A stretch of 20,000 nt of DNA from an uncultured virus (IMG/VR IMGVR_UViG_3300025751_000002). Lineage: Duplodnaviria > Heunggongvirae > Uroviricota > Caudoviricetes. Below the pieces are notes generated by a model. It was not told where the DNA came from, did not search any database, and saw only the letters and a list, made by a program, of their open reading frames with translations. Made by a program: the position numbers and the translations under genes. Numbering within the stretch: position 1 is the stretch's first letter; every line of letters starts with the position of its first letter. Below are positions 4,567 through 13,211 of this stretch, piece by piece. The DNA is taken from IMG/VR virus record IMGVR_UViG_3300025751_000002; one strand, given 5' to 3'.

Positions 4567-5361
4567 TTACGGGGAGACAACACGGCCAAGCAGGTAGCCG
4601 TCGATGTCTTCGTAACCAGGAGCAACATCAGGTTGGATGTAGCACACTTCAACGATCAGATAACCAGTGCGGCCAGCAGTGGAATCAGCGCTGGAGATGT
4701 ACCAACCGCCGCCTGCAGTGGTGCCGGTCAGGGTAGTACGGGACTGAACGTTGTAAGTAGTAGCGGCAGTCACTTCGCGGTAAACCTTACCTGCGCTATT
4801 ACCAGCAGCACCGGTAGCAGTCAGGAGAGGAACAGCGCTGTAAGCAGCGGAACCACCAGCGAAATAAATCTCACCGGGCTGGCTGCCAGAGGTGGTGGAC
4901 TGCAGGTTTGCTTGGGAAACAGCTGCGCCAACACCTGCGTTGGATTCCAGGCCAGGACCGAAGGTAATGATGTTACCGGTTGCGGCATACACACCAGAAG
5001 CAACACGGCCATCACCCCAGCCAGAAGCAACGGAAACAGTTGCGCGATACACATAGGCAGGAAGGGTGCTGCTGCCGGAGATCACCATACCGGTGATGTC
5101 AGTGCGGGTATCGTCATTCCGATAAGGGGAAGGAACGATGACACTGCCGGAGGAAACAGCACCGCCACCAGAAGTGTTGGTGACAGGAACGTAACCACGC
5201 TGCTGGAAGTAACGGTAGCCAGGAGTTGCCAGCACGCAAGTGGGGCCACCCTTGGAGTTATTGTTGCTGCCGTCATCGTTGGTATCAATGTTCTTGTACC
5301 AACCGTTGAGGGGCTCTGCCCAGTTACCTGGGTAGATTTTCTTAGCGGACAAATAGGTCAT
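4567..5361 (-). CDS. Putative capsid decoration / second major virion protein
   Basis: 264 aa, Gly/Ser/Thr/Ala-rich, directly after the MCP. It shares the MCP's C-ending codon bias, which suggests high expression. Confidence 0.55.
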   Translation of the reverse strand: MTYLSAKKIYPGNWAEPLNGWYKNIDTNDDGSNNNSKGGPTCVLATPGYRYFQQRGYVPVTNTSGGGAVSSGSVIVPSPYRNDDTRTDITGMVISGSSTLPAYVYRATVSVASGWGDGRVASGVYAATGNIITFGPGLESNAGVGAAVSQANLQSTTSGSQPGEIYFAGGSAAYSAVPLLTATGAAGNSAGKVYREVTAATTYNVQSRTTLTGTTAGGGWYISSADSTAGRTGYLIVEVCYIQPDVAPGYEDIDGYLLGRVVSP

Positions 5362-5398
5362 TTATCTTTTCCAGTAATTTAAATGTATGGATTAATTA

Positions 5399-6550
5399 TC
5401 AGACGGTACCATCGTCTTGGATGAAGCTGAATGCGGTGGTAACGAAGTCCTTGTTCAGGATTTCAAAACCAGCATACAGTTGCCAGATCAGGATGATGAA
5501 GCGGCTGAAGTCGTCGTTGTTGTTGATGAGCACCTGAGCGTTCGGGCCGCCGATACCAACACCAATCGACTGAGGACCAAAGAAGTAACCTTGGGCAACT
5601 TCCTGGGAAGTGTAGGTGGAACCAGCATCGAACGAAGCGTTGACGTTCTTGATGGGGAAGTTGGTCGATTCGAAGAACTTCACACCTTCAAACTGAACAC
5701 CAGTAGGCATCACCGGCTCACCGGCAAGGAAGTAACCTTGACCAGCCTGGGGACCCATGTAGAAGCTGGCGTTGTTAGGCATCATGGGATTACCCATGTA
5801 CATGCCTTGGCCAGGGGTACCAGCGTAACGAGCGATCTCACGGAAGTCAGGATCACGACGCAGATGCATCATGAAGACGGGATCGCAAATGCAACGATAC
5901 AGACCATCAGCGAAGGTAGGAACGTTACGCTTACGCAGATCCTTAACAACGGTCAGAAGGTCAGTACGCACCTGGAACTGCTGAGTTTGGCTTTGGTACT
6001 CAGCAAGGCTATAGGTGATTTGACCGGAAGCATTCTTTTCCTTAGCACCAGCGAAGTAGTAACCGCCTTGTGTGGTGGAGGCAGCACCGTTTGCTTCTGC
6101 TTTGGCAAGTTCATCAATGAACACACGATCACGCCACCGGCGATAATCATCGAGCAGAGTCAGCGAACCAATGCTCTGGTGGAACATGTTCAGGTTACCG
6201 GTATCCAGCAGCAGACGCTGGGCGGTAATCAGGGTTTCACGAGCAATTTTGAAGGTGCTGGGCTGAGTGGGATCACCCGGATCAGCAGGGCCAGTGTATT
6301 CTTTCAGAACAACAAGCACCTTTTCCTTGGTGATGTTGCGGCTATTGGCAGTACCAATGGTCTGATCAGAGATACGCTCGCGGCTATCCTTCGTACCAGG
6401 GGTACCCCAGAACTTATAGCGATCTAACTGAACGGTTTGACCGGGCTGACGAGTGAAGTCGTGGACAACCACGGGCTCCACAGCCATCTCGGTAACATAA
6501 GCAGGGTGAGGACGATAAAGTTCCGCACCTAAAATCTTTGGAAAATCGTT
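5399..6550 (-). CDS. Major capsid protein, exon 2 (spliced gene = complement(join(5399..6550,7377..7388)), 387 aa)
   Basis: The frame is open 21 codons upstream of the listed ATG 6487 (NDFPKILGAELYRPHPAYVTE) with no in-frame start before a TAA in the intron. It has HK97-fold-like features (DFTRQPGQTVQLDRY, DLRKRNVP, GVQFEGVKFFES, DDFSRFIILIWQLYAGFEIL), strong codon bias, and sits after portal/scaffold. Confidence 0.85.
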   Translation of the reverse strand, partial: NDFPKILGAELYRPHPAYVTEMAVEPVVVHDFTRQPGQTVQLDRYKFWGTPGTKDSRERISDQTIGTANSRNITKEKVLVVLKEYTGPADPGDPTQPSTFKIARETLITAQRLLLDTGNLNMFHQSIGSLTLLDDYRRWRDRVFIDELAKAEANGAASTTQGGYYFAGAKEKNASGQITYSLAEYQSQTQQFQVRTDLLTVVKDLRKRNVPTFADGLYRCICDPVFMMHLRRDPDFREIARYAGTPGQGMYMGNPMMPNNASFYMGPQAGQGYFLAGEPVMPTGVQFEGVKFFESTNFPIKNVNASFDAGSTYTSQEVAQGYFFGPQSIGVGIGGPNAQVLINNNDDFSRFIILIWQLYAGFEILNKDFVTTAFSFIQDDGTV

Positions 6551-6788
6551 CTCCTGGTCTCTAGTTTCTTAGAGGGGTGGACTATCTCTTCATCCCTGTG
6601 GGATGCCGGACGCTGAATCTGGTATTACGTAACAAGATCGTGTTACCCCCAGTAGTCTCTGCACCTTCCAATCACGTTCTTGATTGGCTTGGCTCAGGAT
6701 TACCCTCGTCTTTACGTTAGGGCTTCCCTGAATTCATCCGGTTTGCACTCATCAATTGCTTGGTGAGGTGACAACGTTGAGCGTTCAG
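6551..6788 (-). ncRNA. Group I ribozyme core (P1 3' strand/IGS, P2-P9)
   Basis: P AAUUCAGGGAAG (6734-6723), Q AAUCCUGAGC (6701-6692), R GUGCAGAGACUA (6664-6653), S AAGAGAUAGUCC (6590-6579). P3 CCGGAUG/CGUCCGG; P7 GACUA/UAGUC; P8 CAUCCC-ACA-GGGAUG; P6 extension CCAAUCA/UGAUUGG; P9 CUCUA/UAGAG; IGS CGUUGUCA (6776-6769). Confidence 0.92.
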
Positions 6789-6805
6789 TTGAGGCGTGCT
6801 ACAGT
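6777..6805 (+). promoter_or_regulatory. Predicted sigma70-type promoter of the HNH gene
   Basis: TTGAGC (6777-6782), 17-nt spacer, TACAGT (6800-6805) with an extended TGn. It ends 23 nt before ATG 6829. Confidence 0.55.
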
Positions 6806-6828
6806 CTGGAAACCTGTTTATAAACAAC

Positions 6829-7374
6829 ATGAATCCAAAACTTGTTCCAGGATTTGGTAATCTTTACTTAACGGAAGAAGGGAAAGCTTTTGAAAAACAA
6901 CTTGATCCCGATAATCAAGAATATTTTCTAGAGATTCCTATTAGTTCCACCAGTGTTTACGACCGTATTTCAGTTCTTGTAGATGGAAAGAGAAAAAGAT
7001 TTCATCTTCACGTCTTGATGGCAATTGCTTTTTTAGGATTAGATCTGCGTTCTCATGGAACCAGTAACTTTTCCCTACAGATTGATCACAAAGATAACAA
7101 CAAGAGAAATAATCAACTTGCTAATCTTGAGATCGTTACCAAACAAGAAAATTTAACAAGAGCCTGGGAAAACGGTTGTTACAAAAACAATGGTTTTGCC
7201 AGTAAAGGAAAGCCGAAGAAATCTTTGAGAAAATTTTCTTCGGATGACGTGAAACAAATTAAATCTTTAAAAGAAGCAGGTCTTTCTTATAGAAAAATTG
7301 CTGAAAAATTTAACTGTAATCACGGAGCTATTTACCAAATCTTGAAGGGACATACCTACCAGGATCTGAACTAG
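6829..7374 (+). CDS. HNH homing endonuclease (HNH_3 / I-HmuI-like) with C-terminal HTH
   Basis: NUMOD4-like N-terminus (KLVPGFGNLYLTEEG), HLHVLMAIAFLG, IDHKDNNKRNNQLANLEIVTKQEN, and HTH LSYRKIAEKFNCNHGAIYQIL. AT-rich relative to the MCP. ATG 6829 is preferred to GTG 6796, which lies inside the predicted promoter. Confidence 0.92.
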   Translation: MNPKLVPGFGNLYLTEEGKAFEKQLDPDNQEYFLEIPISSTSVYDRISVLVDGKRKRFHLHVLMAIAFLGLDLRSHGTSNFSLQIDHKDNNKRNNQLANLEIVTKQENLTRAWENGCYKNNGFASKGKPKKSLRKFSSDDVKQIKSLKEAGLSYRKIAEKFNCNHGAIYQILKGHTYQDLN

Positions 7375-7376
7375 CT

Positions 7377-7388
7377 ATCAATGAACAC
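7377..7388 (-). CDS. Major capsid protein, exon 1 (GTG TTC ATT GAT = MFID)
   Basis: GGAGG SD at 7403-7399, 10 nt before the GTG. Unspliced, the frame stops after MFIDS. The exon pairs with the IGS through a U-G wobble at the splice site. Confidence 0.85.
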
Positions 7389-7428
7389 TTTAGTTTATCC
7401 TCCAGTGTCAGTGTTTTTATCGGGTGAA

Positions 7429-7489
7429 AGATAAAGACACATGTGTCTTATCTAAAACAAATTCTAGCAGGTAATAAGCTTTAAGCTTA
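7429..7489 (-). promoter_or_regulatory. Predicted MCP promoter and leader with two palindromes
   Basis: Extended -10 TGCTAGAAT (7469-7461). Palindromes AAGACACATGTGTCTT (7434-7449) and TAAGCTT-T-AAGCTTA (7475-7489). Confidence 0.5.
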
Positions 7490-8068
7490 CATATACTGCA
7501 TAGTAGGTGCTTTATAGCGTGCACCAGGGGAGTTGCTAGATCCGTAGGATTCAGGATCAATAGCCATTCCTTGTTGGAATCCAGGGACACCCAGTGATTC
7601 AGGGATTGCACCAAGCGCTAAACCTCCTAGTCCAGCAGCAGCCGCAGATGCTGGCACTAAACCAGCTGCAAGTCCCTTAGCAACATTCTGCTGAACAGCT
7701 TGGCTTGGGAAAGGAAGTGCAGCTGAAACTCCAGCTAAAGGATCACCAAATAAACGAGCATCTACTGCAGAAACTGCATCAGCTCCAATATTTGCAGCTT
7801 TGCGACGCAAGCTATCTTGTGGAAGATCGCGTGCCACGTCACCAATCTTGTTCCCAAGACGAGTAACTTGTTTTTGCGCCGCTGCAACTAAAGCAGGGTT
7901 GTACTTACCTGCAAGTGCACGGGCTCCTAATAGTCCTGCTGCGCCGCCCAAAGCACCAGTACCTGCAGCAAGTGCAGCAGATCCTGGATCTTCATTCTGA
8001 GAAAGGGCATACCCGCCGGTCAGCAAACCAGCTGCAGCGGGTACACCGTATCTATAAGCGCCACGCAT
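7487..8068 (-). CDS. Ala/Gly-rich hydrophobic hypothetical protein
   Basis: 193-aa ORF starting 4 nt after the scaffold stop, with glycine-zipper-like segments. Confidence 0.7.
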   Translation of the reverse strand: MRGAYRYGVPAAAGLLTGGYALSQNEDPGSAALAAGTGALGGAAGLLGARALAGKYNPALVAAAQKQVTRLGNKIGDVARDLPQDSLRRKAANIGADAVSAVDARLFGDPLAGVSAALPFPSQAVQQNVAKGLAAGLVPASAAAAGLGGLALGAIPESLGVPGFQQGMAIDPESYGSSNSPGARYKAPTMQYM

Positions 8069-8072
8069 GGAA

Positions 8073-9026
8073 TCACTCCATTACAAACAGCTTGTTGGAA
8101 ACCACTTGAGGCTGAGCGTTATTCAGGAGACGCCATGCCTGGCTGGGATCCACATCCATTTGTTGCTTAAAGCTGCCCCAGAAGTTTTCAGGTTGCTGAG
8201 GAGCTGCTGCGGTAGGAGGAGCAGGGAATTGACCCAGGGCAGAATCAATCGGTGCAGTGGGATAACCACGGGTTTCCAATTGAGCCTCATCCTCATACAC
8301 AGGATAGGGACCCTCAGGACCAAAGAACTTCAGCGTGTAATCGCTAAGTACATCGGGATTGGTCAGGATCTCGTTGTATGCCAGGTTCTCCTGGTGCTCA
8401 TTAACACTGAATTCGGCATAGCCATTCAGCAGTTCTTGTGCTTTGCCACCCCAGGCAACAGCACTATCCAGCATATCTTCCAGCTGGAGAGCATAATTAT
8501 TTAGAATTGCGGGAGCTTCTGTTCCGTACGCGCTTACCACGTTCCGGCTTTCCGGGCTCCAATCCAGGAGATCCGCTACGTCCTCCAATGATTGAATCGA
8601 GGAAGTTTGGGAAGAGTTGGGCGAGTAGGCCTGGTTGGGTAATGAGGTCTGCGGAGCCGATTGTTGCGTACCCAGGTTGCTGGGAAGCTGGCCGTAGTTG
8701 GCTGGACTGTATTGCGTCGTCTGAGACGGTTGACCCTGGAACGGGGATTGAACTGGTGCGCTCAGCAGATTCACCACCTTGTTGAACGCCGATTCCCATG
8801 GGTTGCCCTGGGCTTCCGGTTGGGATTGGGGGGCGTACTGCGTAGGGGCTGATTGGTAGCTGGGGGCTGCCTGTGGTACCGCCTGAGGGTAACTGGTACC
8901 CACCTGATACTGGACTGGTGCTGCCACTGGAGCTTGCGCCGGAGCCGGAGCCACGTAGCTGCTCGGAGCCACCGCTGCCGGAACTTGGCTCGTCTGTGGG
9001 ATCGATTGGACGGTAGCGTCCTGCAT
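8073..9026 (-). CDS. Putative capsid scaffolding/assembly protein
   Basis: AAGGAG SD upstream. Pro/Gln/Ala/Ser-rich disordered N-terminus and acidic helical core, located between portal and MCP. Confidence 0.6.
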   Translation of the reverse strand: MQDATVQSIPQTSQVPAAVAPSSYVAPAPAQAPVAAPVQYQVGTSYPQAVPQAAPSYQSAPTQYAPQSQPEAQGNPWESAFNKVVNLLSAPVQSPFQGQPSQTTQYSPANYGQLPSNLGTQQSAPQTSLPNQAYSPNSSQTSSIQSLEDVADLLDWSPESRNVVSAYGTEAPAILNNYALQLEDMLDSAVAWGGKAQELLNGYAEFSVNEHQENLAYNEILTNPDVLSDYTLKFFGPEGPYPVYEDEAQLETRGYPTAPIDSALGQFPAPPTAAAPQQPENFWGSFKQQMDVDPSQAWRLLNNAQPQVVSNKLFVME

Positions 9027-10773
9027 AACTCATCTCCTTTTGTAAGGCTTCTAATGTTCGATACAGATATGGTGTTAGATCCAATCTGGGATCCGCAGCC
9101 ATCGGTAGATCCGGTGCTTGCGGGTGAGGAGTCTGCATCATTCCCCCCACTAGACGAGCAAATTGAGAGTAAGCACCCTGCAATTCGTTCACCATCCTGA
9201 ATGGGAACCCAGATAGCATCTCGGCTCTTTCCTCATCCGTTTTAGAAGGGAAGAGGTACTTCAGTGCTTCAATGCTATCAACACCTAATTCCTGAAGGTT
9301 TCTTACAACAATAGAGTTGTTAAGAATATCTTGCGTGGAATCTTCATAGACGGGACCAAGCCAACGCCATAAAACAGTTAGATCCCCATCAGGAATTAAC
9401 CCAACAACACTTGGTGGTATTTGTTGAGTTTCCACACAAGCTAACATAAGTTTCTTCAATTGTTCGTTATATTGACTTAATGCATCTTCGTATGCAGCCT
9501 GTTGTTCAGGTGGTGCATCATCAGGTAATTCAACTGGTTTCTCCATACCAGCAGCAGCCGCAAGTGTTGTTTTAAACAGCTGCTCTTCTTGATAAATAAT
9601 AAGTTCTAGACAACGACAAATACCGTGGGTGTAAATGGCGTTTGCTTTCTTCTTTGATGTGGCGGCAACGCGGCCAAACAATGATTTGTATTCAGTTGCA
9701 GTAACACCTGCAGAAATTGACAACTCATCCACGCCACCAAGAGCGGTACGGATCTCTTCCCTATACTGACGGGCAAATGCGTTTTGATCACCTGTAATAG
9801 CATCTGGAACAATATAACCAACACGATCGTTTGGTTCCAGGTTTGCAATAACTCTTGGAACCCTGATCTGACCATCCATGCCACGGCTGACTGGATCAGC
9901 TTTAAACATGGAACGGCTCATGGGCGAAGGGCTCATGAAACCTGAGTTAGCAGCAATAGATGGCCGTTGAACGGACATATCACCACCTGCTTCCATTAAG
10001 TCGGTTTTAGGCCGAGAGGAAAGCAATGTTGGATTACCAAAAAAGGTAATGTTCTTGCGCATCGTGCGCATTAAATCATCATGGGTGCAGATGTGATTTG
10101 CCATTTGGTCAAATTCACCCACCCCTTCATTGGAGAAGCCTTGGGCATTGTTGATGATCTCAACACATGGAATAAAACCAAGGCTATTTTTTAACTTCTT
10201 TGTATTGCCCGTTAGGGCATAAGTGGGCATATCAAAATTTAATTCTGCATCAGAATGAGTTTCTTCAATTTCTCTTCCTTTAATAGATAAACGAATATAG
10301 CGTTTTGCTCCAGGGCTATAAGTACTTTGTGTACCTGAAATACTCGTAGTATTAATTGCTTCGCCGAAACCGTTGCCTTTACGTACCTTATAACTGTAGA
10401 TAATTACAACTTCATCAAGTTCGCCATCAACGTTGTAATAGGCACGATATTCGTGATCACGAAAATAGTAAAGCCGATAGTTCTGTTTAGTTGGCCGAAT
10501 GTAAAAAAGACCTTTTCCATCACATAAAAAGTATTCCCAGATGGAATCCAAACGGGTATCAATCTTGTTGTACTTTAGTACGCGATCGATAAAGTCCTTT
10601 CGTTGAGCACCAAAGTTATCCTGGCCTGCAAAGAATTCAACTCCTTGGCGAATGCCAAAAAGTTTCATTTGTGCTACGTGGGACGCAACAATGCCCGTAT
10701 CAACAACAATGTTGCTATCTTTATCTAGATAGGCATTGATAATTTCTTGAAGCCGGGCTCTAGCGTCCGCCAT
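8497..10773 (-). CDS. Putative portal protein with long C-terminal tail overlapping the scaffold gene
   Basis: Largest ORF between terL and MCP, with AGGAG SD. Portal-like layout (YFLCDGKGLFYI, LGFIPCVEIINN...GVGEFDQM, LTVLWRW). Assignment rests mainly on synteny and size. Confidence 0.72.
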   Translation of the reverse strand: MADARARLQEIINAYLDKDSNIVVDTGIVASHVAQMKLFGIRQGVEFFAGQDNFGAQRKDFIDRVLKYNKIDTRLDSIWEYFLCDGKGLFYIRPTKQNYRLYYFRDHEYRAYYNVDGELDEVVIIYSYKVRKGNGFGEAINTTSISGTQSTYSPGAKRYIRLSIKGREIEETHSDAELNFDMPTYALTGNTKKLKNSLGFIPCVEIINNAQGFSNEGVGEFDQMANHICTHDDLMRTMRKNITFFGNPTLLSSRPKTDLMEAGGDMSVQRPSIAANSGFMSPSPMSRSMFKADPVSRGMDGQIRVPRVIANLEPNDRVGYIVPDAITGDQNAFARQYREEIRTALGGVDELSISAGVTATEYKSLFGRVAATSKKKANAIYTHGICRCLELIIYQEEQLFKTTLAAAAGMEKPVELPDDAPPEQQAAYEDALSQYNEQLKKLMLACVETQQIPPSVVGLIPDGDLTVLWRWLGPVYEDSTQDILNNSIVVRNLQELGVDSIEALKYLFPSKTDEERAEMLSGFPFRMVNELQGAYSQFARLVGGMMQTPHPQAPDLPMAADPRLDLTPYLYRTLEALQKEMSYAGRYRPIDPTDEPSSGSGGSEQLRGSGSGASSSGSTSPVSGGYQLPSGGTTGSPQLPISPYAVRPPIPTGSPGQPMGIGVQQGGESAERTSSIPVPGSTVSDDAIQSSQLRPASQQPGYATIGSADLITQPGLLAQLFPNFLDSIIGGRSGSPGLEPGKPERGKRVRNRSSRNSK

Positions 10774-11684: not shown

Positions 11685-13211
11685 TTAGTAATCAACCTGA
11701 AGCTTACCTTTACGCATTAATCCGTTAATCATCCAAACCAACGCATCAACACAGTCATCATGACTGCTAACACCAAAGTTGGTAAGCTCTTCAAACATTG
11801 CAGTGAAGTTGCGGTAACGATTGAAGATAATCTTGCGATCTTCAAACAAACCCATGCAACCACGGAAACGTGCCAACTTATCTGCACGGAATCCTTTGAC
11901 AGGATGCCAATTTAAGTTATAAAGATTTTCATTGTTTAAACAAACGCGTTTGAAGTCAGCTTCCAGTGATGCCTGGTACTGTACAGCTTCTGAGTAAATA
12001 TCACAGGTGGAATAAGTAGGAAAATAATTACCTTGTTCATCGCGTCCAAGGATGGACCAATCATTAAGTAGTTCCTTGAGGGCATCAAGTTTTTCAAGGT
12101 TACCCATTACTCGCAATCTGCGGTAATCAATAACGTGAATGCGATCCTCGATGCGACCACCCAGAACCATAACGGTATAATCATTTTTCTCTTTCGTACC
12201 AGCAGATAGGTCAACCCCTACAGCAAGCGTGTCAAACTCCGTAGAGATCTCAGCTTTAACAATAAGTTCTGGCGCCAGGGACAATTCATTCTGTCTGACG
12301 ATTTGATTCATGTACTGAAAAGAAAAAGCAATAGGTGCTTGTCGTTTCTTTTCCTTTAAATAGTCCAACGACCACATATCTGGCCAGTATGAAACTTCAT
12401 CCCCTGTTTTGGGATCAGTAAGAATTGCAGATAACACGATCTGCATCCAATTGTTTTGTGGGTTAAAAGTAGTTGAATGAATATCGTCATGTCGGAAGCG
12501 TGTACCAAGGCAGATGGCACGTGCTCCTTCAAACATGGTTGGTGCAATCACTGCATTCCAGTTGTCCTGCATCTGTTTACGGATGTCTGGATTAGCAATA
12601 TCAGCGGCTGATTTAATTGCGTCATCAATGATTACCAGGTGAGAACGTTTTGATGTCACCGAACCTTTGAGGCCCGCTGCACATAAAGTAAATTGCTCTT
12701 CACCAGTGGTATCAATACCAGCAAACTTATGGTCAATAGACCAGTATTCATTACTGGTTACGTTTTTAAGAAGGCGTACTTTAGGGAAAACTTCTTGATA
12801 TCTTTTGCTTTCAATGATTCGTTTGATGGTTGCTGACTTGGAACGAGCAATATCAACCGTATAAGAAAGGTAAAGAATTTGCAGCGGTTTCTTTGCCATG
12901 GTGTGTACACCAATGGCCCATGCAGTAAATAATCCAAGGATGGTTGATTTAGCTGAACCTCGTGGAGCCAATAGATCAATATTGGGGCCAGCAATCTTTA
13001 CTAAACAACTACTATCTTCTTGCGTTACAAAGTGCCGATGCCATTCTTTATGATGCTCGGCAGGTGGTTTATCTGCTACATACTCACAAAAGAAACCAAA
13101 ATCATCCCTTGCTTTTTCCAGGGATTCAAGGTTTCGTGGAACTCTAATTTGTTGCCTGCGTGCAGCAGCTTGTGCATTACGTCTATAAGCAAGATGTTGA
13201 TAAGCAGGCAC
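11685..13211 (-). CDS. terL: Terminase large subunit
   Basis: Walker A APRGSAKST, Walker B LVIIDD, coupling motif GTRF, and RNase H-like nuclease residues GVDLS ... DYTV ... HDDCVDA. Confidence 0.95.
   Translation of the reverse strand: MPAYQHLAYRRNAQAAARRQQIRVPRNLESLEKARDDFGFFCEYVADKPPAEHHKEWHRHFVTQEDSSCLVKIAGPNIDLLAPRGSAKSTILGLFTAWAIGVHTMAKKPLQILYLSYTVDIARSKSATIKRIIESKRYQEVFPKVRLLKNVTSNEYWSIDHKFAGIDTTGEEQFTLCAAGLKGSVTSKRSHLVIIDDAIKSAADIANPDIRKQMQDNWNAVIAPTMFEGARAICLGTRFRHDDIHSTTFNPQNNWMQIVLSAILTDPKTGDEVSYWPDMWSLDYLKEKKRQAPIAFSFQYMNQIVRQNELSLAPELIVKAEISTEFDTLAVGVDLSAGTKEKNDYTVMVLGGRIEDRIHVIDYRRLRVMGNLEKLDALKELLNDWSILGRDEQGNYFPTYSTCDIYSEAVQYQASLEADFKRVCLNNENLYNLNWHPVKGFRADKLARFRGCMGLFEDRKIIFNRYRNFTAMFEELTNFGVSSHDDCVDALVWMINGLMRKGKLQVDY

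Follow-up and report, generated by a model that had tools for sequence, protein, structure and literature searches.

We analyzed a 20,000-nucleotide (nt) stretch of DNA from an uncultured tailed phage (IMG/VR record IMGVR_UViG_3300025751_000002), hereafter called the window, and focused on the major capsid gene on its minus strand. The original prediction, made from the letters of the sequence, placed a group I intron inside this gene, directly after codon 4. The locus comprises the following features:

7403..7399 (−), Shine-Dalgarno sequence GGAGG of the capsid gene, read from the sequence; the GTG start lies 10 nt downstream
7388..7377 (−), capsid exon 1, 12 nt, GTG TTC ATT GAT (M F I D), read from the sequence
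7376..6551 (−), group I intron, 826 nt, starting with AGCUAG and ending with ...CCAGGAG; from the sequence, the Rfam match and related copies
6550..5399 (−), capsid exon 2, 383 codons plus stop (5401..5399), first codons AAC GAT TTT; from the open frame and the phrog_1357 match
6829..7374 (+), HNH homing endonuclease gene, 181 codons, from ATG at 6829 to TAG at 7372-7374; from Pfam, phrog and 1U3E matches

Exon 1 is directly followed by AGC TAG (7376..7371), so that unspliced RNA would be read as MFIDS and a stop; the in-frame UAG is the second codon of the intron, whose terminal G lies at 6551. The four codons of exon 1 and the 383 codons of exon 2 together give a capsid product of 387 amino acids (aa). 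The claim that the full-length capsid needs exon joining is supported, and all of the coordinates given with it are correct, as are the lengths of 826 nt and 387 aa.

The capsid protein matched phrog_1357 (major head protein) at 2.5e-16. Its AlphaFold model had a predicted local distance difference test (pLDDT) score of 78.6, and the best Foldseek matches of the model were solved capsids of a cyanophage and other phages, with probability 1.00 (top match 8i4l, E 4.7e-13, template-modeling scores 0.51/0.58). The gene is located downstream of the portal-like and TerL genes. The protein family, the modeled fold and the placement of the gene among the head genes all identify the product as a major capsid protein of the HK97 fold. 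A Pfam search with the capsid protein gave no match even at E 1, and the precomputed PF25209 tag carried by some of its homologues was not reproduced by that search.

The ribozyme and the exon junction

Rfam model RF00028 (Intron_gpI; gathering score, 50 bits) matched 6829..6558 on the minus strand over its full length (1-253), with 91.2 bits and an E value of 1.4e-22, and was the sole Rfam hit in the window. When the same model was run on related loci, 5/5 intron-bearing loci tested scored 87.8-94.5 bits, and 0/2 intron-less loci matched. Elements R and S as well as P3-P9 are visible in the Rfam alignment, which also has 37 inserted nt between the 5′ strand of P7 and the 3′ strand of P3. The elements of the intron are as follows, where a slash in a sequence marks the splice site:

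6829..6558 (−), ribozyme core, from the Rfam alignment and a hand-drawn structure
7380..7374 (−), 5′ strand of P1, UGAU/AGC, spanning the 5′ splice site; from complementarity to 6775..6769
7371..7366 (−), 5′ strand of the P1 extension (P1a), GUUCAG, pairing with CUGAAC over 6 bp
6788..6783 (−), 3′ strand of P1a, CUGAAC, pairing with GUUCAG
6776..6769 (−), internal guide sequence CGUUGUCA, with GUUGUCA for P1 and CGUU for P10
6767..6748 (−), P2, with a GCAA loop; from the mapped structure, as are all elements below
6741..6735 with 6612..6606 (−), P3
6731..6694 (−), P4-P5
6693..6663 (−), P6/P6a
6659..6653 with 6584..6579 (−), P7
6652..6619 (−), P7.1/P7.2 insertion, 34 nt, two helices
6605..6591 (−), P8
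6574..6559 (−), P9, with a GAAA loop

P1 consists of UGAU/AGC paired with GUUGUCA (6775..6769), with wobble base U7377 opposite G6772 at the cut. P10 consists of the 3′ exon bases AACG (6550..6547) paired with CGUU (6776..6773), directly 5′ of the P1 guide. Both pairings and the U.G at the cut are present as originally named, and the internal guide sequence is invariant in 15 distinct intron sequences. The core contains P3-P9 with the P3/P7 pseudoknot, a G-binding P7 with a bulged A, and the terminal G. In the P7.1/P7.2 insertion, the helices CUGG/CCAG and GUAAC/GUUAC are stacked and GUA follows the inner helix; such an insertion with a G-U-A linker is given as a subgroup IA2 feature in PMC3428280. 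By anatomy only, the intron is assigned to the phage-type subgroup IA2.

Covariation was counted on the hand-drawn P2-P10 structure over 20 related copies, of which 15 are distinct. Standard pairs made up 98.2% of 989 pair cells, and eight pairs, in P2, P6, P6a, P7.2 and P8, were changed on both sides. None of 500 shuffles reached this count, and slid controls gave 0-1. In one copy (L005), P7.1/P7.2, P6/P6a and P8 are rewritten yet fully re-paired. P1 and its extension form in the minimum-free-energy (MFE) folds of both copies of the intron that lack an open reading frame (ORF). The MFE fold of the whole intron in this shorter, 276-nt form was uninformative (z-score −1.64), showing long-range 5′/3′ pairing and no ribozyme fold, and was set aside. 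At the level of sequence and predicted structure, these results indicate that the element in the capsid gene is a group I intron.

The exon junction was examined in the best 80 of 598 relatives found in a scan of IMG/VR. At this site 54 loci are contiguous, and the other 26 carry an intron whose 3′ end abuts AAC GAx TTT. In the intron-less alleles (54/80 loci and Synechococcus phage S-EIVl), the 12 nt of exon 1 are joined without a gap to AAC/ACC GAx TTT; one of them, L004, has a capsid 99% identical to that of the window and an identical leader. S-EIVl, the sole cultured relative, has a capsid with 85.9% protein identity at full coverage, encoded by a GTG-start ORF of 383 aa that reads M-F-I-D-T-D-F-P-K without interruption at the junction. 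The leader GGAGGATAA...GTG is common to S-EIVl, the related loci and the window. Joining the predicted exons would thus restore the host reading frame and give the same arrangement as the contiguous intron-less sequence, in agreement with the predicted MFIDNDFPK-type junction and with the split after codon 4.

The N-terminal 25 residues at stake are widely kept. Among the capsid matches listed, 94/120 are 387 aa long, and three such sequences that were inspected begin (M/V)F(I/L)D(N/T)DFPK. Full-length relatives at 27-50% identity, drawn from 1.84 billion representatives, start 3-12 residues before the conserved DFP motif, and not at MAVEPVV, which indicates that the 25 residues belong to the capsid family. 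The matches listed also include one 362-aa call, P0037 (MAVEPVV, 29 member sequences), and six 377-aa calls, of which one inspected starts LGAELY. We read the 362-aa and 377-aa calls as probable truncations of intron-bearing genes, as the original prediction had expected of gene callers. Capsids from intron-bearing genomes of this widespread freshwater cyanophage lineage are accordingly short by 10 or 25 residues in public protein sets, and the S-EIVl reference record is itself without a correct capsid coding sequence (CDS).

In the S-EIVl GenBank record, the region KJ410740.1 60784-62010 (L001 3917-5143) is instead annotated with a 'hypothetical protein' on the opposite strand and a short plus-strand fragment; the ORF of the capsid homologue lies at L001 3992..5143 (383 aa, GTG start). 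Among the 55 intron-less alleles we counted 18 junction variants, some of which (e.g. L015, L038 and L061) differ at would-be P1/P10 bases (TTAGAC/AAC, GAT/AAT and GAT/ACC). Alleles of this kind might be refractory to the endonuclease, or might not permit splicing once invaded.

An intact endonuclease gene antisense to the intron, and the allele states

The original prediction did not mention the plus-strand ORF of 181 codons that lies within the intron. This ORF fills the 5′ two-thirds of the intron (7374..6829) on the strand opposite to the capsid gene. Its last five codons and stop are written in the sequence of P1 and the P1 extension, such that the 5′ strand of P1a doubles as the last endonuclease codons; only 2 nt separate the stop from the 5′ splice site, and 14 nt separate it from the capsid GTG. 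Pfam HNH_3 matched the ORF with 35.3 bits (cut-off 24.8; E 9e-9) and phrog_59 at 3.1e-26, and residues 43-176 of 181 aligned with I-HmuI (1U3E) at E 8.6e-7. The GC content is 0.32-0.36 across the gene versus about 0.5 on both sides.

The ORF is intact with its ATG in 17/17 complete copies of the long intron (89-100% nucleotide identity), all of which keep the HNH motif. The ratio of nonsynonymous to synonymous substitution rates (dN/dS) had a median of 0.11 and a range of 0.03-0.20 (131/136 pairs, dS > 0.05), and the sense frames over the same region contain 4-15 stops each. Intact ORFs and the low dN/dS indicate that the endonuclease is a protein under selection. These results show that 6829..7374 is an intact, conserved gene for an HNH, I-HmuI-like endonuclease. 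An antisense homing endonuclease gene also accounts for the size of the intron and would account for its mobility. In a promoter and terminator scan of 6300..7700, one promoter-like and one terminator-like site were found, no more than in shuffles; the sole sigma-70-like match lies inside the endonuclease ORF, and the region has fewer such matches than its shuffles.

Among the 26 intron-bearing loci, 17 have an intron of 824-826 nt, two have the 276-nt form, and seven are cut by the contig end. Three alleles therefore co-exist: no intron, a 276-nt intron without the ORF, and an 824-826-nt intron with the endonuclease gene. The Shine-Dalgarno sequence and the four-codon exon are intact upstream of all 19 complete introns. 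In L002, the intron and the matched capsid protein are 100% identical to those of the window; the nearest record, G001 (24 kb), carries this intron only.

The 276-nt introns (L007 1824-2099 and L074 1346-1621) occupy the same site, and a small hairpin caps the P1 extension in place of the ORF. They share their boundaries and two substitutions, one of which removes the endonuclease stop, and they sit in different capsid clades. This pattern suggests that the short form is itself a spreading lineage, perhaps mobilized in trans, and not the result of two independent deletions.

A tree of exon 2 with 81 rows requires no fewer than 16 changes in intron presence, and well-supported branches force 11 of these. 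Near-identical sister pairs differ in intron state (L002/L004, L005/L006 and L064/L075). The scattering of intron states over the capsid tree indicates mobility, and as a sequence pattern it fits repeated gain by homing and/or loss. Three co-circulating allele states in near-identical capsid genes from many metagenomes offer a natural system for studying intron homing and loss in uncultured phages.

Proposed mechanism and alternative readings

We propose that a mobile IA-type group I intron carrying an antisense HNH gene lies after codon 4 of the capsid gene of an S-EIV1-like freshwater cyanophage, and we put the probability of this reading at about 0.87. The late transcript would contain the Shine-Dalgarno sequence, the GTG, 12 coding nt and then the intron. 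The guide GUUGUCA would pair with the last four exon bases and the first three intron bases, and an external guanosine would cleave at the U.G. The guide would then align the 3′ exon through P10, and attack after the terminal G would join the exons into the message for the 387-aa capsid. The most heavily expressed virion gene would thus depend on a ribozyme.

The low-GC insert in the long loop of the extended P1 stem encodes the endonuclease on the opposite DNA strand. As an antisense gene it must have a transcript of its own, running opposite to the late genes tested in its surroundings, and ribosomes translating the endonuclease would never cross the ribozyme RNA. If the enzyme behaves like I-HmuI and I-PfoP3I, it would, during co-infection, nick capsid alleles that lack the intron close to the insertion site, and repair from an intron-bearing genome would copy the intron in. 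Homing of this kind would account for the intermixing of the three allele states in near-identical capsid genes.

The first exon is only 12 nt long, so that P1 lies within the stretch covered by an initiating ribosome and the splice site within the ribosome-binding region. Initiation on unspliced RNA and docking of P1 should be mutually exclusive, and splicing and translation initiation would have to compete at a splice site so near the start codon. Gating of capsid output by splicing, as raised in the original prediction, is at this point a hypothesis. An extension of this idea, which we consider unlikely, is that the start-proximal antisense layout acts as a timing switch for capsid synthesis. 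Because the endonuclease stop lies so near the splice site and the GTG, a transcript of that gene extending only slightly beyond the stop would be antisense to the splice site, the start and the Shine-Dalgarno sequence, and it could block splicing or translation until outcompeted by late transcription. If true, this would be a structural-gene analogue of the psbA antisense RNA of S-PM2, a cyanophage in which an antisense RNA reportedly links psbA and a homing endonuclease gene.

Strandless contigs assembled from four metatranscriptome runs were compared with 5399..7700. An exact 826-nt skip at 6549/7376, ambiguous by one base because A stands on both sides, was found in the contigs of 2/4 runs from two studies, with depths of 49.3 (X1) and 2.8 (X2). 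Contigs of three of the four runs (X1, X3 and X6) covered the intron and the endonuclease-gene region, although, being strandless, they do not bear on transcription of the endonuclease gene; X2 contigs gave no intron cover, and missing cover in contig data is not evidence. Given strandless contigs and intron-less phages with the same leader, the junction contigs are compatible with splicing and are not proof of it. We infer that the intron of this phage splices.

Several observations weigh against the proposal. The joined RNA contigs could stem from intron-less relatives, which are common and in L004 have an identical leader, or from DNA in the RNA libraries. Contigs of X1 and X3 (records 8 and 21) bridge the 5′ splice site unspliced, and no joint occurs in X3 or X6 contigs, where again missing cover is not evidence. 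Covariation is silent on P1, P10, P7, P9 and most of P3-P5, which are invariant across copies. For the endonuclease, Pfam HTH_38 at the C-terminus scored 24 bits, below its cut-off of 27; an in-frame alternative start (GTG/ATG; here the GTG at 6796), 33 nt upstream of the ATG at 6829, makes the start codon ambiguous; no convincing promoter or Shine-Dalgarno sequence for the gene was found in the scan of 6300..7700; and its activity, target and strand preference are deduced by analogy. Recombination between co-infecting phages could also scatter introns without any endonuclease.

Taken furthest, the doubt about splicing would make the intron a splicing-dead relic and would have capsid translation begin at the ATG at 6487, inside exon 2, giving the 362-aa product (MAVEPVV...) that gene callers predict. 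An ORF 5399..6487 with an ATG start does exist, the 362-aa calls of P0037 with their 29 member sequences are public, and direct splicing evidence specific to this phage is absent. We nevertheless regard this as very improbable: the ribozyme core scores far above threshold in all six copies scanned (the window and five loci), compensatory changes maintain its helices, and the Shine-Dalgarno sequence and four-codon exon have been kept before every one of the 19 complete introns. Moreover, relatives with as little as 27-50% identity still conserve the 25 residues that such a start would remove, and the internal ATG has no good Shine-Dalgarno sequence before it. That the insertion is a chimeric join in one metagenomic contig might be suspected of a window that comes from an uncultured viral contig and whose capsid protein and intron are matched at 100% identity in L002; this is already refuted by independent copies, since the same insertion occurs at the same base in 26/80 independent IMG/VR loci, which come from numerous samples, the 17 complete copies are no longer uniform (89-100% identity), and the intron is also present in RNA-library contigs of 3/4 runs.

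It is also conceivable, though improbable in our view, that the intron splices while the antisense ORF is no longer an active homing enzyme, with the patchy distribution reflecting homologous recombination and occasional precise loss. The ORF-less introns of L007 and L074 speak for it, since one form with the same boundaries and substitutions in different capsid backgrounds means that an intron without its own enzyme has spread, and so does the lack of an identified promoter or Shine-Dalgarno sequence for the ORF. However, a co-infecting phage that bears the endonuclease can mobilize ORF-less introns in trans, and despite some 10% nucleotide divergence all 17 ORFs still run unbroken through 181 codons, with dN/dS of 0.11. 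The HNH motif is retained, and the alignment with I-HmuI extends over most of the protein.

Known systems and neighboring genes

The closest parallel is mycobacteriophage LittleE, whose capsid gene has an intron of about 820 bp that is spliced in vivo and contains an endonuclease ORF 'on the bottom strand' (Pope et al. 2013, PMC3706429). In both phages, an intron of about 820 bp interrupts the major capsid gene of a tailed phage and holds a bottom-strand endonuclease gene, exon 1 ends in U and the intron in G, a related short ORF-less intron exists (in LittleE's case, one of 265 bp in the BAKA tail gene), and only some members of the phage group carry the intron (PMC3706429). Splicing was demonstrated in LittleE by reverse transcription PCR and N-terminal sequencing, whereas it is inferred for the cyanophage intron. 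The LittleE intron is called 'most likely group I', whereas the cyanophage intron is a firm match to RF00028; for the LittleE endonuclease the text compares a LAGLIDADG enzyme and the figure legend says HNH, whereas the cyanophage enzyme is clearly HNH and I-HmuI-like. The LittleE site is at the mature N-terminus after a processed leader, and the cyanophage site follows codon 4 of the ORF.

The rarity of a capsid-gene intron was therefore overstated in the original prediction, given LittleE and the capsid-gene intron of lactococcal phage Tuc2009 cited in the same paper (PMC3706429). Given LittleE, the cyanophage intron does not represent a new kind of element; as a second, well-resolved case of an antisense endonuclease gene in a capsid-gene intron, it suggests that LittleE is no isolated exception. 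Its unusual features are the very short first exon and the rich natural allele series.

The DNA polymerase introns of SPO1 and SP82 (I-HmuI and I-HmuII) are likewise phage group I introns with an HNH endonuclease of about 175-180 aa, and a nicking mechanism like that of I-HmuI is expected by analogy for the cyanophage enzyme. I-HmuI is encoded on the sense strand within the intron of a DNA-metabolism gene. Unlike in that system, the cyanophage endonuclease gene is antisense and lies within the P1 loop of an intron in a structural gene.

Cyanophage introns have been described in psbA and in Pf-WMP3's DNA polymerase gene (PMC3428280). Pf-WMP3 is also a freshwater cyanophage, with an IA2-type intron whose P7.1 and P7.2 are joined by G-U-A, and its I-PfoP3I is an HNH endonuclease that nicks; intron and endonuclease gene are thought to have arrived separately (PMC3428280). 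In contrast to the capsid intron, the Pf-WMP3 ORF is on the sense strand and overlaps P6a-P7.2, and its host gene is the DNA polymerase gene. That paper describes its enzyme as the first intron-encoded endonuclease in a cyanophage protein-coding gene, and reports no capsid-gene case (PMC3428280).

Homing endonuclease genes antisense to the ribozyme are found in nuclear ribosomal DNA group I introns (e.g. L2066; PMC9548176), although these are nucleolar introns of rRNA genes whose endonucleases belong to the His-Cys box family and whose endonuclease genes contain spliceosomal introns. Group I introns located at the very beginning of a coding region are also known, namely the Clostridioides difficile c-di-GMP ribozyme and the engineered SIBR td intron, the latter inserted directly after the start codon (PMC3984707, PMC8565351); with an intron at this extreme position, translation of the full protein depends on splicing. 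The C. difficile element is a ligand-controlled ribozyme in a 5′ untranslated region and SIBR is a synthetic construct, in which they differ from the cyanophage intron. An early in-frame stop is a known feature of phage introns, thought to keep ribosomes out of the ribozyme (PMC3984707), and the antisense orientation would have the same effect by sparing the ribozyme from ribosomes that translate the endonuclease.

A blastn search of the whole intron against cultured phages matched 48 records, none covering 80% of the query. The matches covered part of the ribozyme core only (query 633-842; 60-95% identity by band), and no Mycobacterium phage was among the organisms matched. Literature searches aimed at antisense or opposite-strand endonuclease genes in phage group I introns gave no phage case, LittleE itself having surfaced in a reference list, and the words antisense, opposite, orientation and capsid are absent from a 2014 review of bacterial group I introns and a 2025 intron database paper. 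No natural phage intron with a first exon of 12 nt or less was found in a limited literature search, which is not a claim of absence. Within the literature searched, this is the first described intron in an S-EIV1-type cyanophage capsid gene, with the proviso that the supplementary tables of the intron database paper (PMC11835236) might already list it.

Two Vibrio phages have TerL genes annotated in five pieces (L083, OP793884.1) and three pieces (L084, MG592553.1). The gaps of about 230 nt between the pieces match the intron core of the window at 74-75% identity, and we read them as probably several short ORF-less group I introns in one gene. Being ORF-less, they carry no information on endonuclease orientation.

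The structural genes tested around the capsid gene (TerL, portal-like protein and capsid) are all on the minus strand. The two neighbors are as follows:

11685..13211 (−), TerL gene, from protein-family searches
8497..10773 (−), portal-like protein gene, from protein-family searches

Just upstream of the capsid leader, a near-perfect palindromic hairpin with a T-rich stretch spans 7411..7450, between the capsid Shine-Dalgarno sequence and a 193-aa ORF ending at 7487. It scored as terminator-like on the plus strand, and S-EIVl has a hairpin of different sequence at the equivalent place. Possible roles are termination, processing or, as a regulatory stem, control of capsid expression; read on the plus strand, the hairpin could mark where the endonuclease transcript ends. 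Two stop-free plus-strand ORFs with TTG starts, 5417..6427 (336 aa) and 4633..5382 (249 aa), lie opposite the capsid gene and its neighbor, respectively. Codon composition probably explains these frames as artefacts; a frame of the same kind is mis-annotated in S-EIVl. Finally, a 317-aa ORF at 8073..9026 (−) shares about 530 nt with the 3′ part of the portal-like gene, read in a different frame; its S-EIVl counterpart has only 133 aa, so its true start is probably much further downstream.

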